DNA from: Lingula anatina
Taxonomy: Eukaryota > Animalia > Brachiopoda
Direction: 5' to 3'
Assembly (NCBI GenBank): GCA_051362555.1
Contig: CM120648.1
Span: 3,282,587 to 3,346,586, forward strand
Length of the DNA stretch: 64,000 bases
The notes under the pieces are model-generated. The model had not been told where the DNA came from. It saw only the letters and a list, made by a program, of their open reading frames with translations, and did not search any database. This document shows positions 1 to 50,617 of this stretch, one piece after another (position 1 is the stretch's first letter; the number at the start of each line of letters is the position of its first letter). The position numbers and the translations under genes were made by a program.

Positions 1-2311
1 TCGAGTTAATGAGCCTTAAATGATTCCTCTACACCTGCTTGGTGCATCAATATCCGAATCCATTTCCAGGATATTGTATCGTTGAAAACAGATGAGTTAA
101 GTTTTCTATAACTAGTAAACAAAAAATTATCTTGTCCATTTCTCAATGGCTTTGTCCTTTTAAATATTCCTTAACATATGTCAATGTACACAATCTCCTA
201 TCTGGAGGGTACAGTTTAAATTGTATAGATATTGTTCAGTACCAATTCCTGGTCTTGTTTGTTTCAAAGTTTCTTTGGTTTTTAAACATAATCTTTGTGA
301 AGTTCTAACTCTTGGAACTTCAGTTAATGCAACAATTTGTGCTCTCTGTGCTGATGTAAAAAACATAAGCATGATCAGCTTCATTGTTAGATCTTTCAGT
401 AATAACTGCCTTGCTGGCGACAGTTTCCTCATGTAGTTCAAAACAAATGTTACATCCCACACTTGTTGATATCTGGATGCAGTAGGTCGAGTGTTAAAAA
501 CTCCTTTTAAAACCTATGATATAATTATGACTCCCCACTGTTGGAGCACCAAAAGTAATAAATGTTGATAATGCACATCTAGCAGTGTTTATAGCACTGT
601 AACTTAAGCCATCTTCACAGAGATGTACTAAAAAAAAAATCTAGCACTTTTGCTACAGTTGGTCTATAAGTTGACCTTCCTTCATTTGAAAACATTCCCC
701 ATTTTTTAATATAGACTGATAATGGTTCTGAGAAGATTTCCTCCATGATTTGAATATGATTTCGATAGCTCTCTCTGAAAATCTATCTGACTTGAGAGTT
801 TTCTGATACTTTGCATGCCAACAGTTTCAAACGATTTCCCATTGAGTGTGTCACCCGTTTCTAGTGAGGAAGTGATAAGTAATACTGTTGTTGTTGGCGA
901 TAACGGAATAAAGGATGTCTACTAACATATCCATTAACGGAGTGAATCATACTTGTGTCAACCAAAAAAGGTATCACAACTAAAAACATCTGCCTGATCT
1001 TCCCGAATCTTCTTGATTATCCTGGGAATCAGACTCTACCGGTGCCACTTCTTGCACCTCTAAAGCTCTTAGGAAAATTTCTTCCTCTTTCTCTGGGAGT
1101 CCCAGAATATGATAGACCAGTGTTTTTAAACACTTGGTAATTCATTTTGTTGACATCAGACATGTCACGGATTCTTTTTACTAGTTCATCCCCAAAAAGC
1201 CTATTTGTATATGGGATGGAACTTGCACACAAATGCGAATATTGCTTATCAATGTGAGGTCTTAAAGCCTCTTTCCTTCTTGTGCAAAGTTCAAAGTTTG
1301 TGCAACCAAATGCTCGAAATGCATTCGTAGCATCATGGATTATTTCTTCAAAATGTTCTTCCTCTAAATTTTTAGTATCTGAATCCCATTTACTAATGAG
1401 TTTGTTCATTGCAACTGCCAAAGAGGAAACGCCCTTTATCAAACAATTTTGCACTCTCTGAACTTTAAATCTTGTGTTTTAGCATCATGACTAATGCTAG
1501 GCCATATTTCCTCATTTATGATAATTGGTTGCAAACCTTCACAGTTGGAAGGAGTTAAAATTTCCTCAAAAAATGCTTTAGCCTCTTCTTCCATAGGTTT
1601 AGACCTCATGAAAGCTGTAATATTACCAGCTAAGGTTGTGTTAATTTCAGGCCCTTTGGGCTCAGGTTTTTTAGCTGTTTCAGTCATTTTCTTCAAGACT
1701 TTCATTTTCTTTTCTGGAAGAAGTTCTTCCTCTATGTGTCTTTTACTTGTACTGGGCTTTTCATTATGGGCAGTGTCTGCCATCTCGACTACTTGGTCTG
1801 AATCCCGAGCCTCACTAAGTACTGACGTGTCGTCATAAATTTGCTCTTCATAATACTCTTGAGGATATTCATACCTTATTTCGTTTTTAAAATCCTCCAT
1901 TTGCTTTTGAAGATTATCTTGCATATTCTTCATTGTGCCAGCTATCAAGTCTAGTGCTGCACTAATTTTATGATCCACAGTCGTGGCATTATCGGCACTA
2001 GTGGACGCGCCATTTTCATTTTCAACGTGAACGTTAGTCTGCGTCAAAGTTGGAATCTCTGTTAGAACTTGTGGTGAGTCCTTTTGACTTCCCGTCGGAA
2101 GATTTTTTGTGGCCGTGCGTACTTTTCTTAACTTTCGGTATGCTTTCGACCTTTTTAGCCATGTTACTCTTGAATTTTTGTGCCGCTATTTTGCCACGCG
2201 TGCCGTGCTCGTTCGACAAGAAACCGGAAGTGAAGATATGCGCAAGTGCGCATATGCTCTCGCATAAAACGGGAATCTCGTATGACCTCATTTGTATGGA
2301 AACGAAATAGA
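1..2311 (-). mobile_element. Degenerate DIRS-like tyrosine-recombinase retrotransposon (gag-like ORF, end of RT/RNaseH ORF, YR), internally deleted; runs off the left edge
   Basis: A gag-like ORF1 is split by frameshifts (2034-2291, 1439-2047, 1029-1454, e.g. ELCTRRKEALRPHIDKQYSHLC...NRLFGDEL). The ~800-1020 region reads as the C-terminus of the pol ORF (IPRIIKKIREDQA...PMGNRLKLLACKVS). The 1-790 region reads as a broken YR (SAINTARCALS...GVFNTRP...WDVTFVLNYM...TMKLIMLM..TSAQRAQ...LKQTRPG...FKAH). No RT core is seen. Confidence 0.85.
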
Positions 2312-3758
2312 ATCATTTATATATGCTTCTTTAAATTTGATTAATGAGATATTTCAAAATAGTCAGAATACAACTTGAATAAAACTTATGGTGAGCCTTG
2401 GTGCAATATTTAAACACAAAACCTAGAGCTACTTCCACAGGTCCTTAGCTTCACAGCACACATACACTTAAAGTTGAGCAACCCCTACTGATCTCTTAGT
2501 TGTTCAGTCAGAGAACATTCAGACAGTACATGCTCCTTTGTTTGCGCTGATGTCCAGAAAACACAGTCTATTCTGTCTAGTAATCGTCTCTTCATGAAGG
2601 GTTCAGGAGAATGGAATGACTTTTTATTACTCAAATAATTACAAACTTTCTTTTATGTAGAAAAAGGTGAAGGCATTATAACGCTCGCGCAAACTTATTT
2701 AGTTTGCATTTTTCTTTGTTATTTGTGAATATCTGCAAACAGTTTTCGATTTGCTTTTCTTCTAGAAAATCACACATTGGAAAGAGGTGGCAAAAGAAAA
2801 CACAATGTTTTACGATTCCATGGTACTTACCTGTAAAGTTTAGTTCCTGTGGAAGTTGTAGATTTTGTTTAAAACGCATTTGCGTGTATATACATGTAGT
2901 TAGCCGCTTTTTTGTTATGAGCTCTGTGTACACCGTAACAGATAAAAAGCTACTGTATGTAGCCAAATGTTCATCAGCACAACGAAGCTCTGTTTTTGCT
3001 CAAAAATAAGTAACATTAGTCCATATGACTGAAAATTGTCAATTATTAATGACGAAAACTAATAAGATAAAATGTTACAAAACTGGGGAGATAATATAAC
3101 ATACCCCAAACTATATAAGTGTCATAATATAAAAATAATAAAGTATGTTAATGAGTGTAACCAGGATTTATGAAAAATATGAGAAATCACAACGGCTTTA
3201 AGAGCAAGAAGTTAGCACAAATGAAAATAAAAGGCTTAAGATGTGAGAGAAAACACAGGGATATCTGGTAAAACTGACTAGGCAAACGAACAAACAGAAC
3301 ATAAATAGTTCCCAAAATATCTTTCATAAAATATAAATGTGTGTGCCTATACATTCACAGCAGCTAAGGCATTTCATAACCCTGGAAATCTGTTATCACC
3401 TTGCCTGGGTCAACTACTTAAGGTCAAAATGTGCAGACACAAGATCCAAACTAAGACTATTTCCTATGAACAAAACGTTGATGTATTATCGAAAAGTTAT
3501 TACCACCACTAAAAACAAACCATTTCCTACATAAATACAATAAATTATCTTAGTTGCAGTTAATAGTGCTGGGTAAAGAGCTTTAGAAGTCACATATTGC
3601 ACGTTGCTTTATAAACCAACATCTGATCACAACACAGCCAAAAGGGTAAATATGTCACACGGCACAATGTAAATAACTCAAACTTGTCTGAATAATTCCT
3701 AAGACCGTAAGGATCTTGTTCACAAGACTGTTTTCTTGACTACAATTTGACTCAGGCA

Positions 3759-6700
3759 TCATTCGTGGTCTTTTAGCAGGCACTGAATGTGAGCTTCATC
3801 CACCGGTATCCACTTTAATTGAGTCATCTTCTCCAGCTCCAAAAGACCAACACTCAGTAGATAGCATACAGAAGCATTAGGATAATCCCCATTTAACGCT
3901 TTTTTGTACTTAAGTTCACCACCCATAACCATGGCGAGGAGTTCATGGCCGTCTTCCAAACGAACGAATGACCCACTGTCGCCCCCAGCGCAGAAAGTGC
4001 CAATAATACCGTCTACGATGACAAACATCAGTTCATTGCCTTCTTCGTCTGTCGATCGCTCAACATCTTTAACTCTGCCATACGTAAGACCTGTTTGTGC
4101 CCCATACTTGAAAACCAATTCCCCGATTACGTTATCGATGTTTTCCCTAAAAATACTTTCCCCGGGACCGTCCTTAATTCCTGGGCGCCATCCAAGCGTT
4201 GGAACTACGATGGCTGCTATGTCGACATAACGAGATGGTGTTGACCCCGTCTTAATGGCCCAACGACATGTCCCATAGTGCACTTCCGTGCACGTGTCTA
4301 CGGTTCCAGCGTCACAAGATTGGATCACACGGACGTCATCGTCTTTGTTAGCAACATGCTCATTGGTGATCACATACACTGGTGAGTCCACCGCGCTTGT
4401 GCGGAAGTAACCACCAAGGGACCCGAAACGGTCCTCGTCTTTGCCCTCTATTACAATCTTTGCTCCCGGTCTTGATGGTTTCTTGCCACACATGGATGAT
4501 ATCCCCTTCGAAGTTGCCGAAACTATGACGTCACAATCCATCCCATGGGCTTTCACCAAAGACTTTAGCATTTCTTTCACTGCGAGCTCGGTGTGTTTTC
4601 CGAGGTGCTTTCTGAGGACATAAACCTGAACGCTGCCCTCGTCGAACCCCAACATGTGGACGAAATTAAATCTGAAACAAGTCCGTGAACATCATGAGAG
4701 ACATCCGCATTTATGTTTTCGTCTGTCTGTTCAGTAAACTCAAGGATCGAGTTATATTTACAACTCCTTGGTAAATATCAAAGCAAAAACTAAAGCACAT
4801 ATAAAATTGAATAATATTATATTTTACGGAGCTCGTACATCACAATTATTAAGTTGACCAAAGTAACTCACTGCCAAAGAATTTTTTCCAGACGTTCAGG
4901 AATGGCTATTGGGATGGTAGTTGTGCACTCCGAAGAATCGTCAATATTGTTGGTAACTGGAAGTAAAACTTCATCTGTGTTTGGCCATCTAAAAGAAATA
5001 GACAAGGCTGATTCTGCATCTATAAATCCATCATACAAAGGTGTGTGGCATTGTCTCTTTGTGTTTTGAATTTTTAAAAAGAAAACAACTTTCTGAACTC
5101 ACTCAAAGTTTCAGAGCACTAATGGTTAACATCTAGTACGGCAAAAATATGCCGACTAATAGTATTGGCAAATTCCCCTTAAATTTTCAAACTCGGGATT
5201 ATGCTGAAAACATCAAACTTAAAACTTTTAATTGGAAATTTTTCGTCTAGTACTGGCACTCTTTGCATTTTAATTAATAAAAATGTATAAAAAAGACAGA
5301 TAATTTTTACGGCCTTACGCTTTAAAATCTGTCATGTGTTCTGTCTTTTCATCTTGTGACACCCTTGGGTGTAAGAATTCACTGCGGCGAATCGGTGTGT
5401 GGTCTTTTGCAGTCCCTCGTCGAAGAAGTAAAAAGTTACCTATTACAACAATAAGTTTATTTGAAACACTGCAGCCAGAAATAAATGAGTACAAATAAAT
5501 GAGTTATATTTCAAAAATTGAAAAGTAATCATTTCATAAAATAAAGGATTCACACTAAGATGAAATTGAGTTCGAAATAAAACACAGCTGTAAAAGTTTT
5601 ATAAAGAAAGCTAAATGTTTGTGTTTGGGTGTTAAAATGCTAGGCCTTGAATTTTGTTACACTGAAGTCGAATTAGTTATGTCTTAGTTTTCTGTGTGTT
5701 CTGAATGTTAAGAGGTAAATTAGCTTGTCGTTCTTAATTTTCTCGTAGAAAGATTTACGTAGTTATAAGCTTTTTTTGAAAAAAAAATTAAATTTTGCTT
5801 TTTACCGGGGCACCAACGTAAGATAAATTGGGAAATAAAATTCTGACTGCCTCGACTGTATTTTTTTTTAAATAGGGACAAACGGTAATAACTGCCATTG
5901 GCTATGTGTCAGCTTTATGACATTAGGCCAATGATAGTAAGCCAACGCGAATGTTTTCGTTGGCATACCAAAATTGGCCCAACATTGGCCAAAGGTTGAT
6001 AAGCCAACAAAAACATACCTTCATGGGCCAAACGCGTGTCTAACGTTGGGAACCCAACGTCAACCAAATGTCAACCATGCCAACGTTGGGCCAATTTTTT
6101 TTCTATCTGGGAGCTTAAACATATAAACACAAATACTAGAACTGTTCTGTACAATAGCCTACTTCCTTATTGCTTGATTTAGGGAATGTAAATGTGGATC
6201 CTTTCATATTTCTTGATATCTTTATAACATTGAAAAAAAGGATGAGATGTGAGATTACAGTACCTGCAGCAATAGTAAGGAACACTACGTGTAAAACCAT
6301 CAATACATGCAGGTGTAAATATCTGTTCTCTATGTGGCTGGCAGACACAATGCCTGAAAGACGAATGAAAAGATTTTAAAGGTCAAAATGCAACACATGG
6401 CAATTAATGTGACCATAAGTGACGGAATTTATATTAACTTTCATCACATTACGGTCTCTCCGTCATAACCGTGATAAAACACCTTGCAGTTGTAAAATTT
6501 TCATAAGCCAGTTGATATTGAAATATTAAAATATTCAAAACTGTTGATTTCACGGGATTAAAATGGTGTCTTTTATAAGATTCTTAGCATAGATTGCACA
6601 GTGCACGTAATATAAAGGCATAAAAATCGACGAAAAATATATAATAAAACCCTTCATGCCAATACCCGCTTGTTGCTGATCACAACACACATTATCATCT

Positions 6701-9700
6701 GTGGCATTTCCAGGAATTCGGACACAACGGTTGAATTTTTCACATCTGAAAATAAGTAAGTATGATGTAGCAAATATAAGGAATGATGTATCGCCGTAAT
6801 ATTGGGTAGTAATTAGTAGAAGCAATATAAAATAACTATTTACAAATGTGGACATGATCAGAATGCCCTCCCCCTTCGCAGTTTTGTATTTTTATATGTA
6901 GGCCTATCAGTTTTACTATCATTATTTGTGGCACATATTAAGAATTATGTTCTTTATTTGTGGTCAAAGTAAGTCAATCTCTTTTCATTTAAGTATTATC
7001 TTTTTCAAAAACAGACACCCATTAAGTCCCATTTAAACTATAGTTCTACGTGGATCGATCTAACTCCGCGGGGACTCTTGCTGAATGCAATCAGATTAAC
7101 GCACCCACTATTGTTTTCAATGTACTCGTATAATCACCAGCTAACTTTTTGTATTTTACTCAACCCTGGAGGGAAAAATCATTCAGTTATGCTGATTGCA
7201 TTCAGTGAGATTCCTTGCAGACCTGGATCAGTCTACGTAGAACAATAATTCCATTGGGAATAAGCCTTAAGAAATAAAAGCCACCACTCTACTATCACCA
7301 TACTTCTACCACTACTGGAAATGACAAATACTTGCTGATACATCGTAAACATGTAGTAGAAAGGTGAATCTACTTTATCCTCTAAAACTCTGGGCTCTCA
7401 CAGGTTAAGTCTGGACTATTATGTAAGGTCGTCAGTTCAGAAAAACATTTCGGGGCACAAATAAAAGATATTTACTTACTTGGTGTGAGGACGACATTTT
7501 TCCAAATTGTCGTATGTGTCGGAAAAAGTCCCAGGGCTACATTCCATGCACCCGCCTTATATACATGCAATGTGAAACAAACAGATACATCTGATGGTTA
7601 TTTAAATATCACAGCTGAACTAGCCAACTTGGGTATCAAAACATGTTTGATAACATTGTTCCATTCAAGGTATTATATACGGTAAGTAAATTTGGGTCGG
7701 CGAATAATTCGTTGGTTGTGTTTTATTTAAAGGTGGCGAAGAATTCGTCTTCCCCCAAGGAACCTACGCTCTTTCATCATGCATGCATGCATTTCTACTA
7801 ATTGCTTGTAACATTCAAAATACGTTTAACTTGTTTAACTTTACAAGCTTTCCAGTTTTTAAATGTTGAGAAGAATGGACCTTGATTTGACTCCTACCCC
7901 CCACCAAACGACCCATCACCCCAACAAAAAAGAAAAGATAAAAAACTAATAACGGTACATGTACTGGTAGGCTGAAAGACGGTCAAGACCGACTTCACTT
8001 CTTACCTTTGTCATCAATCTCATATCCTGGCGGGCACAGTTTATTCTTTTTACAAGTGGAAGATTCCTCATTCCAATAGCATCCTTGCTTACACTCGCAC
8101 TCCGCGTTTTCGGTCGAAGTCCCTCGGTGGTTATATCTTGTACACAAGCCATCGCATAATTTCCTAGAAATAGGAGAAGGTGACTGAAATTGTGCAGTGC
8201 TAAATTTTAGCTTATTCTTTCCACGCCACATCTAAATTATCAAGTTAAAATGTATTTGCATTCGGACTATATATACCGGTGTGACAGGTAGTCCTAGGAA
8301 TAAAAGTCCGGGGCCCAATATGATTAGAACATGGTGGGGGTTAGTTCGAATATGAGACAAATGTCACCTGTACAAAGTAATGGGGAACGGACTAGAACTT
8401 CTAGCAGAGTACCATTCCTGCCACACCGGTAATTTTAATTAGTTAAAACTAAAAATTACAGGGTGGCTTTTTTACTCTTTCTTTATAATATCTGCCACCC
8501 TGGTACAGGCCTACCCAACTACCAGACTCGGCACCGAATGATCCTGAATTCACCGGTAGTTCAGGCCACAATACCCGTTTTCAAGGTGTGCGTCAGTACA
8601 CGCTTCGAAGTATCAGACGCGACACCGCTCTTGCCCAGTGTGCGATGTGATAGTGATGATTCTCAACGGGGTTGGAAAGTAGTGCATCTCAAAATTTGTT
8701 CCAGGGCATGATACTGTGAAATGCATACTGACGCACACCTTGAAAACGGGTAGTGTGGTCCGATCTACCGTGAATTCTGGACCATTCGGTGTCGAGTCTG
8801 GAAGTTGGGTAGGCCTGATATTTATTTATTTTTTTAAATGGACAAAATGACATCAATCTTCTTATGGAACAATTTCAAACACTGTCCATGGTACCCCACA
8901 ACCGTCTCCCATCCTCCAGGGGTCTCTCAGGTTGTCACAAATTGAACCAAAAAAATCCAAAGATTAGTAACAGCTAGATAGACACCCGGTGGAGGGTAAC
9001 TGTTACAAACCACGGCATTTAAAAGCCTAAATCTTTACAGGCATCTTAACTTGAAAACCCTGCTTTACACTACGTGTACGTGTTTCCCCGTTTGTGTTTT
9101 AATGCACATTCTGCAGTTAAGCCAGCATTTTCTGAACGATAAACGTACTTTTTGATACACTTGGTGCCCAGCTGGTTAGGTATGGGTTGAAATGTCCCTG
9201 GGGGACAGGGACGACATGTAGTGGACTCGGGGTTGACAGAGCTACATGGTTCGGCATAATGTCCTGTAAAAAGTGACAGGATAACAGGTTTAGGGGTTAT
9301 CCATTTTCTTATCATAGTTTTCACAATTATACAAAGCGTAGTCTTTGTCCAGACCCCTGCCCATTCAGAGCGTAGAGGGTGACAAGCTTAAAATGGTGAA
9401 GTTTGATAGCAATTTGGATCTTCGTTTTTATTATTTTTATAATCATACAGAAGGCATTAGCTAGACTCCCCCCTACGCTCCAACGTGCGGTTTGTAGACT
9501 TGTGAAAAAAGGTCAACAAATTTATGTAAAGTGCAAGTTCATGTATGTTGCCCCATATTTGTCAATATTTGCAGAGCAAAATAGAATAATTGACAGTTTA
9601 ATCAATGTAGAGTCTTTTCATACATAAAGAATTGACTTATTTTGACAAATCGCTCTAGATGCAGGGTTATCGTTATAGTGTATTGTACATGCACTCGGGA

Positions 9701-10008
9701 ACGGTACTTTGCTTGCTGGGATATTACAATGCATGTCATAGTACAGAGTTGCTTAAGATCATGACTGGGTTGTGACAGTCTTGCACAATGTACGCACCAG
9801 GTGGACATATACGTTTCCTGCAACAGACCTCTTCTCCTGTTGAGTGAAAGACAGAAGCATAATCAGTCGAATCGAAGCCACACTGGTTCAGTCTTGGTCC
9901 ATTCGTTGTTGATAAAAATAGTGACAATAATAATAACAGTAGGAAGGAACCAAGAAAACGGACTTGGAAGTAATACACTGGATACAGGGATGCTTTACTT
10001 GAAATCAT
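3759..10008 (-). CDS. TNF-receptor-superfamily-like membrane protein with an intracellular trypsin/chymotrypsin-fold serine protease domain (626 aa, 9 coding exons)
   Basis: Exons 10008-9798, 9263-9149, 8163-8006, 7555-7480, 6745-6666, 6353-6264, 5439-5319, 4988-4872 and 4671-3759 all have GT-AG boundaries with matching phases (1,2,1,2,1,1,2,2) and total 1881 nt. The product has an N-terminal hydrophobic leader (FLGSFLLLLLLSLFLS), TNFR cysteine-rich repeats (CCRKRICPPGHYAEPC..TTCRPCPPGTFQ; CMECSPGTFSDTYDNLEKCRPHTKC..GNATDDNVC), a TM segment followed by RR, and protease motifs TNEHV / VDIAAI / GDSGS. Confidence 0.85.
5920..6111. repeat. Truncated non-autonomous DNA element with repeated CCAACGTTGG-like palindromes
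   Basis: Repeated ccaac/gttgg motifs end in ctatctggg, a common invertebrate MITE terminus. Confidence 0.5.
7022..7270. mobile_element. Foldback/MITE-like element, related to 27720-27926
   Basis: Inverted arms gttctacgtggatcgatc..gctgaatgcaatcag / ctgattgcattcagt..gtctacgtagaac, with TTAA at both outer edges. Confidence 0.6.
8274..8431. mobile_element. Small MITE, related to ~27500-27685
   Basis: Terminal inverted repeats taccggtgtgacagg ... cctgccacaccggta. Confidence 0.6.
8506..8817. mobile_element. MITE with ~90-bp terminal inverted repeats in intron 2 of the TNFR-protease gene
   Basis: caggcctacccaactaccagactcggcaccgaatg...ttcaaggtgtgcgtcagta pairs with tactgacgcacaccttgaa...cattcggtgtcgagtctggaagttgggtaggcctg. 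Confidence 0.85.
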
Positions 10009-10638
10009 GTCTACCTGAAGTAGAAGATAACAGAAATTTGAATGAATAATATTAACTTAGTCAACCTGCAAACTTGCCGTTGTGTTCGCTCCGTTAGATT
10101 TAGATTCCACCCCTGCTGCAAAGAATGTGTAAGGAAAAATTTAATCACTTCACTATTGCAGTGGCGGATTCAGGGATTCAGGATTATTTGAAGTGTGTGT
10201 GTTGGGGGGGGGGGGGGGTGTCCAGAAAGACAGGCCTTGGATGCAAAGCCGACCATCGTCTCCTTGGTGTGGGGTTCGGGGCCTGTTCACGGACCCCTAA
10301 TTTTGTGTGTGTGTGTTTTGGAGAGCAAATAATAGTTTTAAACTATAATATAGCTAGTCACGTTTCTAATTTCAAGAGGGAAATATTGGTGTTGTGTACA
10401 TTTTACTTTTTAAACTACAAATCTATAAGATAAAGTGAACATGCAGCGCTCCACTCTACTGATCTCAGTACAGTGGCCCACATACTGCTTTTGAGGAACA
10501 ATGTACAAAATATGGCGACCCTATTTACTTCCTTTTTTCCTAACGCCACATTTTCTACATAGCCATTCTATTTAACAAGAGAGCGAACTCTTACATTATT
10601 TATCACTTTCTTGTGCAGTGAAGTGATGGCAAACTTAC

Positions 10639-11000
10639 CTGTTGAGAAGATACCTCAAGGTAACCAACCTCTGCACGAACTATACTTTCAAATATACAAA
10701 TTAGGCTTTGGGCGTGTCAGAAATACGAAGGTGACGCTCGAGTGCACGATTTATTACATGAAATGACGGGGCATTTTCTTTTATGTTCATTCCAGAATGC
10801 CCCCTATTGTTCGCCTGTACAGGTAAGCGTAGACTATGTAGGCTATGGATGTGGCTCGTGCGTGCTTGTGACATGGAAAATTTAATAAAATACAGTATGT
10901 CGGGCCAACGCTTCGCCTTTCGCCATCAGTATAACAGCCCGGGAGCCACTGGTCTGCCGCTAGGTGGCTATTAAACAAACCGGAAGTTCGAGAATTTGAA
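10639..11000 (-). promoter_or_regulatory. Putative 5' UTR exon and promoter of the TNFR-protease gene
   Basis: There is a strong donor (CAG|GTAAGT) at 10639/10638 and an acceptor just before the ATG (exon starts 10014). A kappaB-like GGGGCATTTTC lies at 10768-10778 and an ETS-like CCGGAAGT at ~10980. Confidence 0.45.
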
Positions 11001-11669
11001 TTGGGCAATATTTTTTTAGATTTATAGGGTGTCATACACGGTGTATTATCTCGGCTATTAACGTACTTGGGGTTACAATATGTACATTGTCATATTGAGA
11101 AATAAATTTCGAATAATGTGAGATGACCCAAAAGTTGATCTACAGCATATTTAATGTTGAAAAATGAGTTTGAAATCGAAATTTTATTAAAGCTATTACG
11201 GAAGTTCGTTTTTGATTTTGATTTTTGTACCTATAGAGGCCTCCGCACAACTTGAAATTACTACAAGTTGGGGAAAATTTATTCAGCTTTCTGTCAATGT
11301 AAGCATGTAAAGAACTTTGCCTTAAGCTGTGAATGGCACAAATCAATTCCCGGCCATGTCAGCCTGAAAACTCTCACTTACGATATCCGCAAATAAGCCT
11401 CGCTTTGACTTAGTGCTTTCTCATGAGCTTCAGTCTCGTTTTAGTTTTTCCTTCACACAGTATTACTTATATAGAGCAACTGGGTATTGGGGACAATGAA
11501 ATAATTTTTTTCTTGGCACTTACCACGGTGCTAATACAAATGAACTTTAACATTTTTTTTTCATTGTAGATAAACCTTTTTATTACATGAGGCCAACTGA
11601 TGAGGGTATTCCTTTCATTAAATATGAAAAATAACAAATGAAAGACAATTTACATTTAATCACATTGCT

Positions 11670-13560
11670 ATATATTTTATTTTAATTTTACATAAAATTC
11701 AACTAGCCTGAAATATTTTACCAGTGAGACATGTACATTGCAAAATAGTTATTTTACATTACATTGTACATGAATTACCCAGTAGGTGATAATTCAATGC
11801 TACTTTACTTGATTGGTACACATTTAAATATATTTAACCATCTAACACACAATTTCCCTTTACACAGTGGACCAGAATTTTTACAAATAATATAATTTCA
11901 TAAATTTTCCCAAAGATGTCATGTTAATTTTCTTTCAGTGATACCAGGTATCAATCCATATTTGCATTTGAATAAACTTGTTTTACTTGTATTCTGATAA
12001 GTAGATACTGTATTATCTATAAGCTACACATATATAAAAAAACCTGCACAGTAAAAATAAAACAATGTATTGTTAACTTAGTTGCACATACACTTTTAAC
12101 TAACTTCATGTGGTTAAAACCTTAATTGATTTTACAAACTGCATTTCTATGTACTGATAACCAATAACTATTTATATTAGCAAGAGCACATATTTTTCAT
12201 CCCTTAGAAGTATCCCAGATGTTGTGGTGTTCATTGCCACACAGCATTTGGAAATGATGGGCACTTTTGTTATGATAATTGCACGGCAAAAGGAATAATC
12301 CTGGTCCCATTCATGCTATTCAAGCCTAGAATAAATAATAGAGTTTTTAAAAGAATATCATAAAAAAATTCTAACTACATTTATCAATTGCTCACACACA
12401 TACACACTGAAATTAATCATAATTTATTGCAATCTTTGTAATAGGTAAACTGTAACAATCAATCTTAAACAGCACTATATTTACAATCTTTACCTTAAAC
12501 TGCACTATTTATACTTAATTCATAACAGTGATTATTAAAAAAACATTTGAAACTGAACTTTGGGCAAAGTTGCACACCCATCATAATTCAAAAACCCAAT
12601 TTGAATCAAGGCATGAAAAAATTAGAAAACACATGCAAGTCAGAGCACCACATCACTATCATATGCCCTCATCATTGAAGAGCCTGTTTCATTTAATGTA
12701 CATACACACATACATATATTATTCACCTTTTTTAAACTTGCATTTTTATGACATTCTTCTCCTCAAAACCCCCAACCAATGCAATAAAACTTATTTTGTG
12801 TTTACCCCGCCCCCAGCAAAAAAGACATAATTTACAATTCATATATTTCAAAACATGCCTAGGTTAGTTTACAATACTGTATCTTTCACAACTACTGGTA
12901 CCAATGCCCCCCCCCCCCCCCCTCCCCACCGCTTTGCAAACAAGTACTGGTACACCACGATATGCACATACGTATACGTGTATGCAGGTTGGATGACAAT
13001 GTTATTTCGCAATCCACTTCATCCTTTTCACATTAAAACACGAAGAAATTGCATGAGAAGCCAAGATTCAAACATTTCACTTATACGGTGACATTCATTC
13101 CATGCATGAGACCAGAAAGCCACTGCCATCACTCGATCAACTAAATGATAGGTACCCGGCACGGTGAATATACAGCTTGTTGGAAATGTTGAAATTCTAC
13201 AAATTACAGGCCATCGCACATCTTAAAAATTTGATATGTTCAAAAAATATTGCCAAACTATGAAAAAACAGGAACAGATAAAGAAAAAAACCCTTAAGCT
13301 GCATTTGGCACAGTTCAAAAGTCAATGTTTACAATGACGTTTTGTGTGCGGCCATTTTGCTAATCGCCAGTAACTTTAGAGAATACTCAGTGAAATCGAC
13401 ACACGAAGACTTATTCGGTGTATAAAATGTAACTTCAGCATATACTGTATTGTCCCGTCAAATTCATTAGTATTTAAATCTACTGTTCATTCCACAAACA
13501 CATGTACAACTTACCTGTCTCTATGCCTTCGTCTCCCGCCAAATTTTTTTGGGGCTACCA
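11670..13560 (-). ncRNA. Possible spliced non-coding transcript divergent from CDK11
   Basis: Strong donor ACAG|GTAAGT at 13515 just downstream of an E2F-like TTTGGCGGGA, a candidate acceptor at 12326, and AATAAA at ~11680. No convincing ORF. Confidence 0.3.
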
Positions 13561-14085
13561 CTCCACGTTTTGAAAACGAGGCCAAATCTAATATTTTCCA
13601 AAATAACCGTCAAATCAGCCAGTGGCTCCCGGGCTGATAACTACAGTTACTTAATAAGAAATAATAATAATAATAATAATAATAAAGGCCCCACATCACT
13701 TTTCGACAAACTAAGAAACATTAAGAAAATCCCAGTATTTTTAAAAAGAGAAGGGATCTTACTCCTGATTTTAATTAATTATTTTAAAGAAAGACTGTCC
13801 ATTTTACTTTAATATTATACAAATAGCAAGACACACTAGAACTCTTACAGCCAGTGGTCAAATTTAACTAATGCAAAAAAATACAAAAAAGATGCACACA
13901 ACATATGGTCAGTTTTGAGAGTTTTGAGACTGGTGGTACCAATTTTATGGTCCAATTTTACTAACAAATCAATTGTTGCTCATAAAAACTCTTATCACTG
14001 GAAAAGAAATTTAAAGACACCTTCGTTTAAAGAATATTTCGATACGTTTCTGTCCTTTTAGCCTTTATTAATTTTATAGTACTTT

Positions 14086-14137
14086 TTATAATAGGCCCTT
14101 TTTATAATAGGCCCTAATAATAATAATAATAATAATA

Positions 14138-14185
<48 letters not shown>

Positions 14186-14231
14186 TGTTGATATTGGTCA
14201 TGGATGCTAAAAAGTCATGAGTTCGAAGAGG

Positions 14232-14274
<43 letters not shown>

Positions 14275-14296
14275 GGCCCTAATAATAATAATAATA

Positions 14297-14341
<45 letters not shown>
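14086..14341. repeat. (AAT)n/(ATT)n head-to-head microsatellite blocks with repeated aataggccc
   Basis: Two (AAT)n-(ATT)n palindromic tracts at ~14116-14185 and ~14280-14341, plus an (AAT)n run at ~14235-14274. Confidence 0.9.
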
Positions 14342-15321
14342 GAGCTACATCCTCCGGTTGTTCGTTTGTAAAATTAATCTTTGAAATCCCCAGAATCAGC
14401 GCCGCTTCTGATCAGACGACTGTGCTCTGCCTCCCGATTGTGTTTACAAACATCTACAGCAATCACAAACCCGAAAATCAGGGCTAAAATAGTGCTGGCT
14501 AACATCATACTTCTATGCTTACATGAAATGGAGCTTTTTATCCGAAAAAAAAAGGCATTCAAATATTTTTCAGTTTCATTTATTCCATACGTAGATTTCA
14601 CAATGCAGAAATCACTAAGGTGAGTGATTATAAGAAATAGAAATACCGCCCTCCTCATTATGAACAGCGCCATCTATCCACTTTTTCACGCCAGTGGAGG
14701 TGGCCATATTGCAACGACTGTAACACGCACCTGTTGTTAAGTTGGTTGAAATGATACATACAATACTGCCAAGTCGTGTATGACGACATCTAGATATTTT
14801 GAGAAAAAGACTCGTACCCTTGGGTATTGGAGGTACCCAGGCATACATGTAACTTACAGCTGGGTTGTTGAACACTCGTGAAACTAATAACGACCGGCTT
14901 CTTGTTGAAAGAGGAACTGTTGTAGTGCTTTTGTTGGGGTTATTACAACGGGTGAGTAATATCAAGTCCAAATATGTATGCTTTTGTTATACCTTATTTG
15001 GGGGGTGGGGCTGGATAGTTTAAATGCTAAGGAGTGGGGTATAGCTGTACCCTCTCTAACTCTTCTTGCCTCAGTTTTCGGCCTTACGTGAAAATGTTTT
15101 TCGTATCATTCCACCCATTGTTTCAAACTCTTGAGGCTATTATCCACATCTCATAATGCGCCCAGGAAGGAAGAGGGGTACAAGATCTTACCCACAGCTT
15201 GTGAGCCAAAAGTGTGGCAACTGCCCCCCAACCCGCACCCCTTTTCCCGTTACCCCATTTACTAGTAGTTGGACCTGCCATTGATGAAGTAATTATGCTT
15301 TCAGGCATTCTCTGACATAAA

Positions 15322-18300
15322 ATGTCTGACTCAGAGCAGGAGCAAGGAGAGTTGTCAGCGTCCCCAGACAACAGTCCTAACAGGCGTGTGGTGATACAGG
15401 ATGAGGAGTCTGCCATTTCCCAGCATTCCTCAGCCTCTGCTGGCAGCGACAGGGAAGATACAAGGAAGGAGGGAAGTGTAGAGAAGGAGGAGAGGTACGG
15501 AGTGAAAAATAATAAGTGGGGAGTGAGTGATGGTTGAAGAAGGGCAGAGAATATTAGAGATTGAGGGGGGAATGTGAGTGCGCGTGTGTGTGTGTGAGAG
15601 AGAGAGAAATATAGGAAAAGAGAGAAAAAAGCTTTCAGGAATGAGGGTAAGAAGAATGACTAAAGGACAAGTAAAGGAGAGTGAGTGAGATAAAGAAAAA
15701 AAAGAAAAGAAAGACAGATGTAGCAACATGTATTTCAAATACCCAAGTGATAACAATTTTAAAAGAGAAGGTAATGTAAAATACTGAAGCATTTTCCATT
15801 ACTTTTCAGACACGAGGAGCAGGAATCTCTTGACATCAAACCCCCACAGTCTCAGGCAGGCAAGAAAGAAAAACACAAACATAAACGTAAACACAGAGAA
15901 GACAGAGACAGGGGCAAGGACTACAGTAAGTAAACATAAATATAGTAAAGCAAAGAGAAGACAGAGGCAGACTACATTACTTCAGAGCTAGAACAGTTTT
16001 CGCCCTGTTTCTCTTAATGAGACTGCAAAAGGATTTGCCATATGTTAACAGAAATATTGAAAGCCAATTTTCAGTCTTTTTACCATATTTATTTAATTTG
16101 AAATTTTTCAGTTTGATTTACTTTGTCATTTAGTTTTTTATTTTTGTTCATATATTTTCCTATGTTTTTATCTTTTGGTGAAACAATGTATATTTCTTGC
16201 TTCTTCAAGGAAAGAGAGGCAGAGAGGGAGAGAAGGAGCGTGGAGAGAGAGGCAGGGAGGGAGAGAAGGAACGAGGGGAAAGAGGACGGGAGCAGAGGCA
16301 GGAGAAAGGCCCGGACCAGAGAGAGAGGGAACGCATGAGGATCAAAGAGGAAAATATCAGGAGGGAGGAGTCTAAACGGGAAAGGTCAGTCGGTGGATGA
16401 TATACATAATTAGGAATTAATTTTTGGGAAAAAAACTTAATAGATAACTTAATTGTTTATATATATCAAATACAGTAGGGACTATTATTTACAATTCTGT
16501 AATAATGATAATGTCTGTTTTGAGAAATGATGACAAGATTTCAACCTTATATGTGTTCATTTGTCAATTTGGAAACAAGAATACATAGTTTAATTAGTTC
16601 TGTCATTAAGTCAACATTATCATTTGACATTAATTGCATAAACTTACTTAGATTTGGCCCTCAAACTCTCTTATCTGTAATCGTCAGACACATTAAAAAA
16701 AAATACAAAGTTTTCAAAAAAAAAAGTTTTATTCATTAAAATGCAGTTTTCTCTTTGTACCCCCAGGGAGAGGTTGGAAAACATGGAGCGAGAAAAGCGA
16801 CGTGAACGTGACATGAAGGAGAGGATGGCCAGGGAGAGAGAGCGAGATCTAGAACGCAGGCACAGAAAGGGGGAGCCACGGTCAAGAAAAGCAGGCGAAG
16901 GTTACTTTTGTATATATATATATATAAAGCTTTGTGTTTCTGACCTCGGTCAGTGACAACATGATTTTTATCCAAATTTCCAGAAATTTTTAATCAAACA
17001 GAAGACAACTTAGGAAAAAAGAAGTGGTATTTGTATTTTGCATTATCTCATTCAGATTAAAGTATGTAGGGAATTTGGATAAAGCGTTCTCTCCCAGCTT
17101 ATTGCACCCAGCTCCATGTTTCATTCAACACCTTAATGAAAAGAATTGTAAGTACCCTGTCAATTTATTTCAGATTCAAGTGAGCGCAGACGAGAAGAGA
17201 GGAGGTCAGACAAATCACGCCCTGACCGCAGTCGCAGCAGACACACAGACAGACAGGACAGAGAGGACAGTCGCACGCGGGGTAGTAACCAGCGCGGGAA
17301 CACGAGGGAAGAGGGTGGGTATACTGAAGTGTGCCTTAGCTCTTTCAACACCCTTAATGTGAGACTCTACACCTAAAAATTGGGAATTTTGGACCTAGCT
17401 GAGACACCTCAAAATGTTTACCAAATGTCTGGGTATGATGAAAAATATTAAAATTAACAATTTTAAAATATGCAAATTAGGTTAATTATGCAAATTAGGC
17501 TAATTATGCGTATTTTTGGGGAAAAATTAAAATCATTATATCTCAAAAACCATAATACCTTTTTTAATTCTGTTTTTTTATTTTTGCAGAAAACGACTTA
17601 AAATAAATAATTAGCCTAATTTGCATAATTAACCTAATTTGCATATGATAATGAGCTTTAAAAATTGTTAATTTTAATATTTTTCATCATACCCAGACAT
17701 TTGGTAAACATTTTGAGGTGTCTCAGCTAGGTCCAAAAATCCCAATTTTTAGGTGTAGAGCCTCACCTTAATGTGTTAAAATTTATCTTACAGAGTTACC
17801 CTTATTGAAAAACAGCCCAGTTGTGAACTTAAAAAAAATATGGCAATAATTTATGTTTAAAGTTGTGTGGGGTTACAAGGTTTATTACAAATTACATAGA
17901 CTTTAGAAACAGTATTTCATATACTATATATGTAAATACCTTAAAATGTATAGCAGCACACTGTAGGGTACCTTAACACCTTATGTAGAATTTCGTTCAA
18001 TTAAGAACCATCTATGAATTTAGATTATCAACTTATGCCTTAGATGATTTTTAAAGACACGTAACTGCTTCTAAATCTAATTTGTTTTCTGTATGTTAAA
18101 AGATTAAGGGTAAAAAATTACAAAGTTGGCTTCACATTCCAGAAAAACGACCGTCCCCAATCCTGCCACCAGAGGTCACCCCTGAGCACGCTGAGGAGGC
18201 AATGGAAACACAAGAAGTGACAAATGACAGGCAGTCTCCAGAATCTAGCGAAGAGTCTGAAAAAGAGGCCACGGAGCAAAGTGAAAGCGAGGCAGAGGAG

Positions 18301-21300
18301 CAACAAGTGGCAGAGGAGAGTGGGAGCGGTGAGTCGGAGTCCGAGTCTGGTAGTAGCAGCAGTGGAGAATCTGAAGACAGTGACTCAGCAGAGGAGGAGG
18401 AGGAGGAGGAACAGAAACCTAAGCCAGGTGTGCATATCTAACATTATTGTCAAACACTGGAATAGAATTTTTCTCTGGTTGCAGTATTTGATGAAATTTT
18501 GGTCAAATTTAAGAAAGTATACTTACTTAATTTATTTGAATATCAGTTAATTTTTGCAAATTCATTTGAATACTAATTCATTTTTCGGTTTGTCACCTTT
18601 CTTGTGTAATTTTCTATCAGCATTGTCAAATGCAGTATGTGTTTCACGATTTTTAAAAAAGAAATATGAAATTTGAAATGTTAATAAGTAAAGAAAAACA
18701 AATGTGATTTGAAAAAGAAAATTTACTTTTTGCCTTGATGAAAGTTGGCACTATCTGAGTTGATAGTTTGAAAAAGTACAATGTCTCCTCTTTGTTCATT
18801 TCAGAAAAAGTACGCTCTAAATTCGATGACCAGTCCTCTCCAGAAGAGAGTGAGACTGAGTCAGTCCCTGAGCCATCGGAGGCAGCGTATGCCGAAGGGG
18901 TCCTTGACGACACCCCACCTCAGTCCCCCGTGGAACTAAAAAAGGAGCTCCCGTCCTATTATCCCGCGATCCAAGGCTGTCGCAGTGTGGAGGAATTTCA
19001 CTGTCTAAACAGGATAGAGGAGGGAACCTACGGGGTGGTGTACAGGGCCAGGGATAAGAAAAAAGGTACACTGAATTTAACTTTATTGAGGAAATTTTGT
19101 TTAATTGAAGAAAAAAGTGGATTTAAAAACGTATCCAGGGTGTTTTGAGTTTGTAACGCAATATAGATTCCTTGATGGTTGGAACTGCTGCTGAAATTTC
19201 ATAAAGTTAAAGAAAAAAGTGGATTTTAAAACATCATTTTTTTTTAGTTTGAAACACAATTTGGTATTCAAGGGTAGATTCTTCAAAAGTAGGAGATTGA
19301 TCAAAATTCCTGAGTACCCCATAATATGATCCCTATGTATTGCAGTACCTATAAAAAATTGTTTTTTTTTTTTTTCCAGATGAAATTGTAGCACTGAAGA
19401 GGTTAAAGATGGAGAAAGAAAAGGAAGGATTCCCCATTACCTCGATAAGAGAGATTAACACCATTTTGAAGGCGCAACATATGAACATAGTCACAGTTAG
19501 GGTAAGTCCGCTACACCATTGTTCCTGTACAGTATAACACATGAATATAATAACTGTAACTCTCACCTTTGCCGAAGCCTACTTTACAACTCTCACACAC
19601 ATACACCAATACTTTCCCTTCAACTTAAATGCGCTGCGGCTCACTCCCACTGGTGGTACAATATCAGTATCAGTTTGAAAGTGAAAAATACAGCATAATA
19701 TCTGATTATGTGAAATGGTTATCTGTAGTAAGGAAATAATAATTTTTGCAGGAAATTGTTGTTGGAAGTAACATGGACAAGATCTATATTGTGATGGATT
19801 ATGTGGAGCATGACTTGAAGAGTCTGATGGAGTCCATGAAACAGCCGTTTATCATGGGTGAGATTCATTTATCAATTACTTGTTTGTACATGGCTCTAAT
19901 CGATATTGAATGAACCTTTATGGAACCAGCTCAATACATGTTAAAGAGATAATTATAAAATTTGATTTTATAGATTATTTTATGTTCAAACCCTATTTAT
20001 TTGAACAAGATTTGACCAAGAGAGCTAGTTTTGGTCATGTGCTGAAGTTAATTTCATGAAAATTAGAATGATAATAATCATGACTATACTTCTTCTTTGA
20101 ACACTGATTCTCAATGTTACAGGAGAGGTGAAAACTTTGATGCTTCAGTTGCTAAGGGGTGTGTCTCATCTCCATGACAACTGGATTATCCATAGAGACC
20201 TAAAAACCTCAAACCTTTTGCTGAGTCACAAAGGGATCCTAAAGGTAAACTTTATAGACAAGTCCAAATATTTGTTATTTTAGACTATTCTCCACTATTT
20301 CCCCATATGGTTAACTTAATTTATAAACTGCATATATCAGGCCTATGCTAGGGAAAACATTCTTTGCTGGCATAGGCGTATGTTGTTCAATAGCACCCTA
20401 GTGTTAGCGCTTAAATTATTTTAAAATGTATAATTTTGGTAGGAGCTTGAATTAAATGATTGACCGTAACTTAAAGTTTAGAAAATATCAGCTATTTCTT
20501 ATTTGGAAATTCTATTTCCAGATTGGTGATTTCGGATTGGCGCGGGAGTATGGTTCTCCCCTCAGGGCATATACTAGTGTTGTTGTCACATTGTGGTATC
20601 GCGCTCCAGAGCTTCTGCTTGGAATTAAGGTGTGTATATGATGTTGTTATTGCTATTGTCAGGTTGTGGGATTGCTGTCCAGATCTTCTGCTTGGGTTAA
20701 TATTGTCGCTGTTTAGGAGACGTTACTGTATTGTTGTCTGTAATTACTGCTTAGAATTGTAAGGTGTGTATGAGGCTGTTACTGTTACATTCCTGATTTT
20801 AAAATTTTCGAATTTATAAGTCAGATAATTTAATGTAGTTTATCATAAATTTACAGCAGTATTCCTCACCCATAGAGATGTATTCAGTTAGCTGTATATT
20901 CTTTGCTAATATTTGCTCTTTACAGTAGTATTCAATGTCCATACGGAAATAGGCTGTTGTACTTTGTAAATATTTTATATTTCCAGCAATATTCCACTCC
21001 CATAGATATGTGATCATTTGGTTGTATATTCTTTGTTAATATTTTATATTTCCAGCAATTCCACTCCCATAGATATGTGGTGGTTTGGTTTATGTTCTTT
21101 GTTAATATTTTATATTTCCAGCCATATTCCACTCCCATAGATATGTGGTCGTTTGGTTTTATGTTCTTTGTTAATATTTTATATTTCCAGCAATATTCCA
21201 CTCCCATAGATATGTGATCATTTGGTTGTATATTCTTTGTTAATATTTTATATTTCCAGCAATTCCACTCCCATAGATATGTGGTGGTTTGGTTTATGTT

Positions 21301-23539
21301 CTTTGTTAATATTTTATATTTCCAGCCATATTCCACTCCCATAGATATGTGGTCGTTTGGTTTTATGTTCTTTGTTAATATTTTATATTTCCAGCAATAT
21401 TCCACTCCCATAGATATGTGATCATTTGGTTGTATATTCTTTGTTAATATTTTATATTTCCAGCAATTCCACTCCCATAGATATGTGGTGGTTTGGTTTA
21501 TGTTCTTTGTTAATATTTTATATTTCCAGCCATATTCCACTCCCATAGATATGTGGTCGTTTGGTTTTATGTTCTTTGTTAATATTTTATATTTCCAGCA
21601 ATATTCCACTCCCATAGATATGTGGTCGTTTGGTTGTATATTCTTTGTTAATATTTTATATTTCCAGCAATATTCCACTCCCATAGATATGTGGTCATTT
21701 GGTTGTATATTCTTTGTTAATATTTTATATTTCCAGCAATATTCCACTCCCATAGATATGTGGTCATTTGGTTGTATATTCTTTGTTAATATTTTATATT
21801 TCCAGCAATATTCCACTCCCATAGATATGTGGTCATTTGGTTGTATATTCTTTGTTAATATTTTATATTTCCAGCAATATTCCACTCCCATAGATATGTG
21901 GTCATTTGGTTGTATATTCTTTGTTAATATTTTATATTTCCAGCAATATTCCACTCCCATAGACATGTGGTCGGTTGGTTGTATATTCTTTGTTAACATT
22001 TTATATTTCCAGCAATATTCCACTCCTATAGATATGTGGTCAGTTGGTTGTATATTTGGGGAGTTGCTGACAATGAAACCCATTTTTCCTGGGAAGTCTG
22101 AAACTGATGAACTGCAGAGGATATTCAAGGTAAAGTTGAGGGATTTTATTGAAATAACACATTTCAATAAAATAAGTGTTCTGTTTGAAACTGTTGTTTA
22201 ATTATTACAGAGAATTGTGAGTAACTTTAGAGAGGTTGTACCCTAGACTATTTAGAGATTTTTCTATACAATTATGTATGTATGTCTGCCTGCATGTGTG
22301 TGTACATGCATGTGTGTGTCATCATGAATATGTTTATACATAATCTATGGCTGATTTACATTTTTAAACCAAAAACCTGGGTATATAAAAAGTACATATA
22401 GATGAATAATTGATAGTTTGATTGATTTGCTTGTTTTTCAGGATCTTGGCACTCCAAATGAGAGAGTATGGGAAGGTGTGACAGAACTACCTCACTGGAA
22501 GAAATACACCTTTGCCAACTACCCATTCAACTCAATAAAAAACAGATTTGGGAGTTATCTCTCAGAGACTGGTTTTCATCTTCTCAACAAGTAGGTCAAG
22601 GTCAAGGTTGTAAATTGTTGAATATAAGCAACTTGACTTTGTTGTTGAAAAGAATGAGAAAGATCTCACTTTGAAAAATGAGTTCAGATTATCATGAAAA
22701 GTTTGCTAGTTGGCTCCACATCCATTAAAAAAGTGACTCAAAAAAAAACTGATTATAATGAACTGAAATGGGTTTATAGAAATTAGGTTTGTAGATCTTT
22801 ATTTATTTATTTATTTATTAATATTATTTTGTCTGTGGGTTTGAGTAATATTATATTCTAACTTGGGAGTTCCCGGAAAAAAAAGTGCAGTGTTTTTTTT
22901 AACCCCATTACTTTTTTGTTCTCGGTAGATTCCTGGCGTATGACCCAAAGAAGAGGATCACAGCGGAGGAGGCGTTGAAGCACGAGTTCTTTCAGGAGTC
23001 TCCCCAGCCTGTGGACCCTTCGATGTTTCCAACATGGCCAGCCAAGAGTGAGCAACCACGTCGCCATGGAAACACGCCCAAGCCGCCATCTGGTGGCAAA
23101 GCCTATGACCTACTTGTGAGTTTACATAGCTTTCAGGTCCTAGTTTGAAAATAACTTGAGTGGGTTCCTTGGCTTACGTCTTTGTTACCAAGGTTACATG
23201 ATCACATGCACACATCTTACCCTATCAGGAATAGTGTTACAGCACTCTCATGGACACGTGCACACATCCAAGAAATTTTTTATGAAACCAGAAAAACAGA
23301 ATTTTTCAGTAGTGAGCAACTATTTTAGGTTTAAACTTGATGCAACTATTTAAACAACTTGTTAAGAGGCCATTTTATTTAACTGATTGAATATTTATTT
23401 ATTTATGTAATTTTTATATTTTAATTTTTTTAATTTTTTTCTTGTCAACCAGGGAGATGATGACGATACAGGGTTCCAGTTCACACATGCTACCAAAGGT
23501 GCCTCAGCTCAGGGTCCAGGATTTAGTCTAAAATTCTAA
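15322..23539 (+). CDS. CDK11: Cyclin-dependent kinase 11 (PITSLRE family)
   Basis: Exons 15322-15494, 15810-15925, 16210-16384, 16767-16900, 17174-17314, 18143-18427, 18805-19065, 19380-19501, 19752-19857, 20123-20244, 20522-20629, 22013-22129, 22442-22590, 22929-23115, 23453-23539. The N-terminus is RE-rich and acidic. Motifs: [74 protein letters not shown], and C-terminal GPGFSLKF*. A 5' UTR donor is probably at ~14619. Confidence 0.96.
17358..17767. mobile_element. TTAA-flanked palindromic non-autonomous DNA transposon (Kolobok/piggyBac-type target) in a CDK11 intron
   Basis: Near-perfect inverted arms of ~150 bp (gtgagactctacacctaaaaattggg... / ...cccaatttttaggtgtagagcctcac), with TTAA at 17354-17357 and 17768-17771. 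Confidence 0.9.
20836..22050 (+). repeat. 69-bp tandem repeat made from the CDK11 intron/exon acceptor junction
   Basis: Unit ttaatattttatatttccag|caatattccactcccatagatatgtggtcatttggttgtatattctttg. There are 15 near-identical copies before the true acceptor (22012/22013) plus 2 diverged copies, and a 204-bp (69+66+69) higher-order repeat occurs three times. Confidence 0.95.
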
Positions 23540-50394: not shown

Positions 50395-50617
50395 AGCCCC
50401 CTTTACACTGGACGGCGTCCTTTCTGCGTCCAGCAGTCCGGCCCCATTTGAGAGTTAAAAAATTATAATATTTTACGTGCCGACAACTGGCCGATCATTG
50501 AGCATTCATTCTGATACAAAATTAATGCTCGTGCCTCCTTATTAAGACCACAGCGATGCCAAATTTCATGGTCGCAGAAAGGACGCAGAAAGGACGCCGT
50601 CCAGTGTAAAGGGGGTA
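50395..50617. mobile_element. PIF/Harbinger-like MITE inserted in the Helentron helicase
   Basis: TIRs ccccctttacactggacggcgtcctttctgcgtcc / ggacgcagaaaggacgccgtccagtgtaaaggggg, flanked by TAA and TTA. Removing 50394-50619 restores VAYTGTAA in frame. Confidence 0.9.

Follow-up and report, generated by a model that had tools for sequence, protein, structure and literature searches.

A Lingula anatina gene predicted to join a TNFR-type ectodomain to a NAL1-like serine protease in one chain

We describe a gene of the brachiopod Lingula anatina that is predicted to encode a receptor with a tumour necrosis factor receptor (TNFR)-type ectodomain and an intracellular serine protease related to rice NAL1. 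It lies on the minus strand of a 64,000-nucleotide stretch (below, the window) of contig CM120648.1, assembly GCA_051362555.1, positions 3,282,587 to 3,346,586. The gene is real, expressed and unusual. We consider it very likely that ectodomain and protease belong to a single chain and probable that this chain carries an active protease in the cytosol. The complete proposal, a single-pass receptor with a TNFR-like ectodomain outside and a NAL1-like serine protease in the cytosol that is switched on by ligand-driven clustering, stands at even balance between right and wrong. Receptors that act as kinases, phosphatases or cyclases are textbook knowledge. To our knowledge, single-chain receptor proteases with an intracellular enzyme are barely known in animals.

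The nine exons (Table 1) splice in phase, as the initial annotation of this stretch had proposed. All eight introns begin with GT and end with AG, and the spliced chain of 1881 nucleotides (nt) translates into 626 amino acids (aa) and a stop, with zero internal stops. The 76-nt exon 4 was located by enumerating stop-free candidates of the required phase. The phase is 1 at the end of exon 6 and 2 at the starts of exons 8 and 9; therefore, an exon that bridges phase 1 to phase 2 is required. There are 16 stop-free candidates for this position; exon 7 is the one with RNA depth, and its donor at 5319 is used by four of the five candidates with the best donors. Upstream, an AG resembling a splice acceptor lies in frame at 10015, six bases before the ATG, leaving room for a further exon (5' untranslated region or additional residues). 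There is no second copy of the gene within the window.

RNA evidence came from raw-read runs picked by species label; of nine such runs, seven were compared with the gene (X1, X4, X5, X6, X7, X8 and X9). Reads of X1, X4, X7 and X5 were placed at 90% likeness, and those of X8, X9, X7 and X6 at 85% on positions 3600-7000. Joints were listed from three reads up, and our statements about junctions refer to the joints listed. Six of the eight junctions were found, in 2-7 reads apiece: 9798/9263 (two reads of X7, letters checked), 9149/8163 (four, X7), 8006/7555 (three, X7), 7480/6745 (four, X7), 6666/6353 (three, X8, with the start of exon 6 diverged from the genome copy) and 4872/4671, which leads into the protease exon (three of X8 and four of X7). 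At 85% likeness, exon 5 has depth in all four runs; exons 7 and 8 have depth in X7 and X8, and none of the four has any at 5082-5309. Intronic repeats at 8350-8900 and 7050-7120, with an inverted structure at 8529-8812, attract most reads in X1, X4, X7 and X5.

Exactly two stretches of the translation exceed a Kyte-Doolittle hydropathy of 1.6 over 19 residues, aa 11-37 and aa 224-250. The first (best window aa 14-32, hydropathy 2.08) corresponds to the signal-like leader described earlier, and the second (best window aa 230-248, hydropathy 2.29) to the single transmembrane (TM) helix, which is followed, as described, by RR at 250-251. The helix straddles the exon 6/7 boundary and RR is encoded by exon 7. 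The positive-inside rule is a basis for calling topology; together with hydropathy it suggests a putative type I arrangement, with the ectodomain predicted outside and the protease predicted in the cytosol. Were the leader retained as an anchor, the protease would be cytosolic all the same.

The ectodomain holds 22 cysteines within aa 43-208. In a PDB search, TNFRSF members fill the top 11 of 18 rows for exon 2 (best E 0.033), and 25 of 27 rows for exon 4 are named TNFRSF or HVEM (best E 0.0013, RANK). The other two, ELR1 and CrmE, we take to be TNFR-family proteins as well. Pfam was run on single exons, which split the repeats; at this scale, RANK_CRD_2 in exon 3 (E 0.0022), TNFR_c6 in exon 4 (E 0.02) and Ephrin_rec_like (E 0.00018) fall under their cut-offs. 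Sequence similarity thus supports a TNFR-type ectodomain with tandem Cys-rich repeats. The earlier count of about four repeats fits the 22 cysteines, but the single-exon Pfam scores stay below the curated cut-offs. On the cytosolic side, exons 7 and 8 and the start of exon 9 contain no death domain or other Pfam family, and aa 250-330 contain no match to TRAF2 or TRAF6 consensus patterns.

The protease motifs GSLGGY, VITNEHV, VDIAAI, VFKYGAQTGLTYGRV and FCAGGDSGS, quoted in the initial annotation, are all present in the translation, with the putative catalytic His428, Asp473 and Ser555 in conserved columns. A profile of seven bacterial Nal1_C proteins chosen independently of the query scores 56.1 bits on exon 9, with a maximum of 5.8 for shuffled sequences (among the 1360 of 2000 reported). 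This hidden Markov model match reaches back to aa 334, and hhalign to a bacterial profile lacking the query gives 99.2%. The three residues are invariant in all eight rows of the alignment with these seven proteins, and in a 50-row alignment of NAL1-like proteins the catalytic columns hold H in 44, D in 50 and S in 50 rows. In Pfam, exon 9 matches Nal1_C with E 2e-4 (21 bits against a curated cut-off of 26.1), and its closest relative, Lingula XP_013421530.1, clears that cut-off at 40.6 bits. Peptidase_S64 (E 0.016, 14.1 bits against 23.6) aligns at model positions 589-649 of 692 only, which is not a full S64 (Ssy5) match and does not place exon 9 in that family; Trypsin_2 (E 0.021) is also under its cut-off. 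An Atlas ranking of exon 9 returned an unnamed eukaryote cluster (0.98; Mollusca commonest, phylum known for 5) and also Nal1_C and trypsin clusters. At rank 14 of an Atlas list stands a mollusc cluster (888 aa; DUF4559 in 48% and HEPN_DZIP3 in 32% of members) that has 123 features in common with exon 9 (score 0.83) and is a possible fusion partner.

AlphaFold, run on the 50-row alignment, produced a model with a predicted local distance difference test score (pLDDT) of 79.8 and a predicted template modelling score of 0.74. Foldseek places rice NAL1 first (8pmg, E 7.7e-14) and alpha-lytic-type enzymes next. By VIA, Lysobacter L5 (Z 17.2; root-mean-square deviation (rmsd) 3.0, 174 aligned) ties with NAL1 7y77 (Z 16.9; rmsd 4.2, 205 aligned). 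The model leans on its NAL1-like alignment; a single-sequence model (pLDDT 33) was set aside. Model and profiles support a protease of NAL1/S64/alpha-lytic type with a predicted double beta-barrel chymotrypsin fold, not one of trypsin type, and the alignments support a His/Asp/Ser triad that is intact at the sequence level. Both the earlier assignment to this type and the chymotrypsin fold for which structure prediction had been proposed are thereby upheld. PDB matches to TAL effectors were discarded as sums of weak repeat matches. A tblastn search against plasmids and phages gave zero matches, and NCBIfam and PADLOC returned nothing useful for exon 9. Five bacterial NAL1-like proteases (L028, L029, L031, L047 and L053) occupy long open frames of 663-1481 aa with C-terminal extensions.

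Between TM helix and protease, the initial annotation had placed a linker of about 130 aa. It is a linker in part, but aa ~304-384 are conserved with XP_013421530.1, and aa 324-384 are modelled as a separate small folded alpha/beta unit, for which there is no Pfam match. Since homology to XP_013421530.1 begins at aa 304, the protease module starts in exon 8.

Relatives of the module were sought with HMMER against 1.84 billion representatives, which returned 22 matches at E <=0.001. Two of them, P0002 and P0004, are repeat-driven and were excluded from alignments. The one strong match is XP_013421530.1, an uncharacterised Lingula protein in which leucine-rich repeats (LRRs) precede the protease module (41% identity over 337 columns); it keeps all three catalytic residues. 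The others include short Mytilus and Saccostrea proteins. In a quick-search tree of 55 of 57 rows (P0018 and P0037 were too short), the query is sister to XP_013421530.1 (SH-aLRT 98); the deeper branches are unsupported, hence we claim neither origin nor transfer. Another Lingula protein among the 22 matches, XP_013402192.1 (1786 aa), combines CARD, a weak NACHT and TPRs with a Nal1_C domain above cut-off, in the manner of an NLR with a built-in serine protease. A second profile, made from 11 animal-type rows and searched against longer proteins, found 11 matches among 7990 candidates: Saccostrea XP_062598269.1 and mostly fungal Ssy5-like proteins. By inspection, the Saccostrea protein has a leader, a Cys-rich region, a TM segment, a weak DED (E 0.035) and the protease module at its C-terminus, with Ser at the expected catalytic Asp position. 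Because related domains also end CARD-NACHT-TPR and TM-DED proteins, the NAL1-like protease looks, by sequence comparison, like a mobile immune effector module that may have been shuffled onto different sensors. Word-indexed homolog searches with exon 9 found 0 of 1896 and 0 of 1013 candidates; they also missed the 41%-identical Lingula protein and so carry little weight. Related-locus candidates, one LRR protein and 14 that we take from their sequences to be enoyl-CoA-hydratase-like, were rejected, as they were joined by chance 8-residue words.

Comparison with known systems separates what is familiar in this gene from what is new. Amphioxus has TNFR-TM-caspase and LRR-caspase proteins that were validated by cDNA (Zhang et al. 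2008, PMC2575513). The TNFR-caspase (JGI model Brafl1_82667) resembles the Lingula protein in that a single chain holds a TNFR ectodomain, a TM helix and a protease on the cytosolic side, a layout read as a bypass of adaptors, and in both animals there is a parallel LRR-protease form. It differs in its enzyme, a QACxG caspase as opposed to a chymotrypsin-fold serine protease (H428/D473/S555), and the two fusions are independent; the QACxG motif is absent from the 626-aa translation. The initial annotation knew of no described receptor with this architecture; within the literature searched this stands for the serine-protease form and yields to the amphioxus precedent for the layout. The new element is the protease class (serine, NAL1-like); the concept of a receptor protease is already known from amphioxus.

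For the enzyme, the closest comparison is rice NARROW LEAF 1 (PDB 7Y77, 8PMG, 8PN2; Pfam Nal1_C PF25819; PMC12012508), an intracellular serine protease with the same H/D/S order and the GxLG, KxGxxTxxTxG and GDSGS motifs. NAL1 has ~20% identity to the Lingula protein and differs from it in being soluble, in assembling as a hexameric cage, in its ATP-binding domain and in having no receptor part. Yeast Ssy5 (peptidase S64, SPS sensor) is an alpha-lytic-like protease that signals in the cytosol under a receptor of the plasma membrane, and its fold fits the likeness drawn in the initial annotation; however, Ssy5 is a separate subunit whose large pro-domain is removed via phosphorylation, ubiquitylation and the proteasome (PMC6761765), and it is activated by this degradation, not by clustering in one chain. 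Vertebrate TNFRSF members (RANK, TNFR2, HVEM, DcR3, DR6) have the same kind of Cys-rich repeats and a single TM helix, whereas here the tail holds an enzyme and no death domain or TRAF consensus was found in it. XP_013421530.1, XP_013402192.1 and XP_062598269.1, all uncharacterised gene models, likewise carry the module at the C-terminal end, behind an immune-type sensor; the two Lingula proteins are without TM or TNFR part, and the Saccostrea protein has another ectodomain and the weak DED.

The Saccostrea protein also resembles oyster receptors with a Cys-rich ectodomain, TM segment, DED, TRADD-N and variable C-terminal effectors (Kaur et al. 2021, PMC8195603). Sections 10-11 of that article name neither a serine-protease effector nor trypsin-like effectors for animals. 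In the 12 of 13 supplementary files searched, a TNFR-trypsin protein is absent; three Branchiostoma rows combine TRADD-N with trypsin, and one of these also has a Death domain. The available text of a ctenophore genome paper (PMC11797021) held nothing relevant. A TNFR joined to a trypsin-fold or serine protease was not found in the literature searched, which left most subscription papers outside.

How might such a receptor work? At rest, protease activity would be low while receptors are unclustered. A multivalent ligand, such as a TNF-family trimer or a foreign surface, would gather several protease modules, and the clustered proteases would become active and cleave either themselves or an immune or death substrate in the cytosol, with the adaptor-caspase step bypassed. 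TNFRs signal through ligand-driven clustering. We favour clustering because of this habit of TNFRs, because the tail is without death domain or TRAF consensus, and because the same module sits on oligomerising sensors; by analogy, clustering could with equal chance be or not be the switch. Amphioxus TNFR-caspase (PMC2575513) shows that the receptor-protease layout is viable. In rice NAL1, the triad is set only in the assembled hexamer (PMC12012508). NAL1 thus offers an analogy for control by assembly within the family; that a receptor trimer would suffice does not follow from it.

Several observations weigh against this reading. Among three junctions singled out for RNA confirmation, 4872/4671 is borne out by its seven reads from two runs, but 6264/5439 and 5319/4988, which join the TM exon to the cytosolic exons, are absent among the joints listed in both read sets. 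X9 covers exon 9 yet has zero depth over exons 6-8, and X7 has zero depth over exon 6, where loose ends indicate a different stalk/TM exon. In the 90% set, X7 alone covers the exons, the other three of four runs having nearly no depth there. On 3600-7000, none of 252 reads is at least 99% alike; therefore, the RNA stems from other alleles or paralogs, and what it backs is chiefly the exon structure of a polymorphic family, less so that of the copy described here. His235 and Asn245 lie inside the TM segment. The alpha/beta unit alone, compared with the trimer-forming N-terminal domain of NAL1, gives P 0.24, which is not significant, and NAL1 trimers alone are inactive, hexamers being needed (PMC12012508). 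Finally, the search for the architecture across relatives came back without a second TNFR-protease protein among the 22 HMMER matches and the seven Pfam-scanned of the 11 profile matches. Loose read ends suggest different stalk/TM exons at ~6660, an apparent in-frame 12-nt insertion in exon 7 at ~5379, and coding or 3' ends that vary at ~3768-3814. Judged from these diverged read copies, the gene family appears to shuffle its ends. That exons 6 and 7, and exons 7 and 8, share one transcript is a structural inference, drawn from the TM helix that crosses the 6/7 boundary, from RR in exon 7 and from the need for a phase 1-to-2 exon.

Two adjoining genes could underlie the same sequence: a short-tailed or decoy TNFR made of exons 1-6, which would read 42 residues into intron 6 before stopping, and a separate soluble protease of NAL1 type made of exons 7-9 and starting at Met279. 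The nine-exon chain would then be a product of in-silico joining. The absence of both bridging junctions among the joints listed, the coverage of exon 9 and not exons 6-8 in X9, depth inside intron 6 (X8, 0.77 at 6108-6221; X7, 2.75 at 5994-6107, where a loose end resembles a repeat) and the many animal relatives on record as stand-alone proteases of 230-335 aa would all fit. We nevertheless find it quite improbable: the TM helix and RR run on into exon 7, the phases fit exactly across an intron 6 of just 824 bp, depth drops where exons 7 and 8 end and is zero at 5082-5309, and in exon 7 the loose ends of X7 and X8 reads (median 98 and 82 letters) start with a variant of that exon and have the length to extend past it. 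Least probable among the alternatives is a single chain with no selected signalling role, either a shuffled copy, young or of low value, in a gene family that changes quickly or a scaffold with an unused protease. Here the frame open over nine exons, the existence of spliced RNA and the triad and motif glycines retained at 41% identity to the Lingula relative argue against it. Among the 25 exon 9 read differences listed (there are 156 more rows), none falls on a triad codon; on the other hand, 16 of them change the residue, read copies differ in their stalk exons and 3' ends, no other TNFR fusion occurs among the relatives scanned, and the oyster relative has Ser at the expected catalytic Asp.

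The main rival, unlikely in our view and ahead of the two above, keeps the single chain and changes its switch. In the manner of Ssy5 and alpha-lytic enzymes, the protease would cut itself constitutively near aa 385 and stay inhibited by a membrane-tethered pro-region, and ligand would release it rather than assemble it. In the model, the protease domain starts at ~aa 385, the point at which alignments of mature alpha-lytic-type enzymes set in with residue 1 (5mrt_B 1..205 to model 64..293), and exon 9 weakly matches Peptidase_S64 (E 0.016). Ssy5 itself undergoes autolysis, and its pro-domain keeps it inhibited (PMC6761765). Counter to this, the pro-like unit is short, about 60-80 residues, and in the active cage described for NAL1, the top Foldseek hit, the N-terminal domains are present (PMC12012508). 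We continue to prefer the clustering-gated receptor over release from a pro-region.

Table 1. Exons and predicted catalytic codons of the receptor-protease gene (positions in the window)
Feature	Position	Strand	Content
Exon 1	9798..10008	-	aa 1-70; start codon, hydrophobic leader aa 11-37, onset of Cys-rich region
Exon 2	9149..9263	-	aa 71-109; TNFR-type Cys-rich segment
Exon 3	8006..8163	-	aa 109-162; Cys-rich segment
Exon 4	7480..7555	-	aa 162-187; TNFR repeat segment
Exon 5	6666..6745	-	aa 187-214; last Cys-rich repeat ends here
Exon 6	6264..6353	-	aa 214-244; stalk and most of predicted TM helix
Exon 7	5319..5439	-	aa 244-284; end of TM helix, RR stop-transfer, juxtamembrane tail
Exon 8	4872..4988	-	aa 284-323; linker and first residues of protease module
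Exon 9, intronless	3759..4671	-	predicted alpha/beta unit aa 324-384 and NAL1-like protease aa ~385-620; stop 3761-3759
His428	4358-4356	-	predicted catalytic, conserved column
Asp473	4223-4221	-	predicted catalytic, conserved column
Ser555	3977-3975	-	predicted catalytic, conserved column

Elsewhere in the window, open reading frame (ORF) fragments at 1-2185 (minus strand), ~1.6 kb downstream of the protease exon, have no Pfam match; we presume that they are a degraded DIRS-type retroelement. Kinase exons (Pfam Pkinase) at 18100-22198 (plus strand) belong to what we take to be a CDK11-like gene, and the start of a kinase exon is tandemly repeated many times at ~20935-22140, giving long open frames on both strands. 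An intronless DUF229 gene (E 1e-109) occupies 29847-31862 (plus strand). A Helitron-like element at 48495-58671 (minus strand) carries Helitron_like_N, PIF1 and endonuclease domains, and its upstream ORF has DUF6570, a tandem repeat and a weak Herpes_teg_N match (E 2.8e-5, slightly below cut-off). An Rfam scan of positions 1-20000 of the window returned 0 matches.

If true, the union of a TNFR with a plant- or bacterial-type serine protease would have solved independently the problem that amphioxus met with its TNFR-caspase. Exon shuffling has probably attached the protease module to different immune sensors in marine invertebrates, and the gene would give a first handle on the uncharacterised invertebrate proteases that end such sensors, as well as a possible natural template for ligand-gated proteases. 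More tentatively, and with somewhat less confidence than we place in the receptor itself, we suggest that marine invertebrates may possess a second proteolytic arm within innate immunity, one that does without caspases. In such an arm, a NAL1-like protease would be plugged onto TNFR, LRR, CARD-NACHT-TPR and TM-DED sensors, and the gene described here would be its cell-surface form, a ligand-gated protease.

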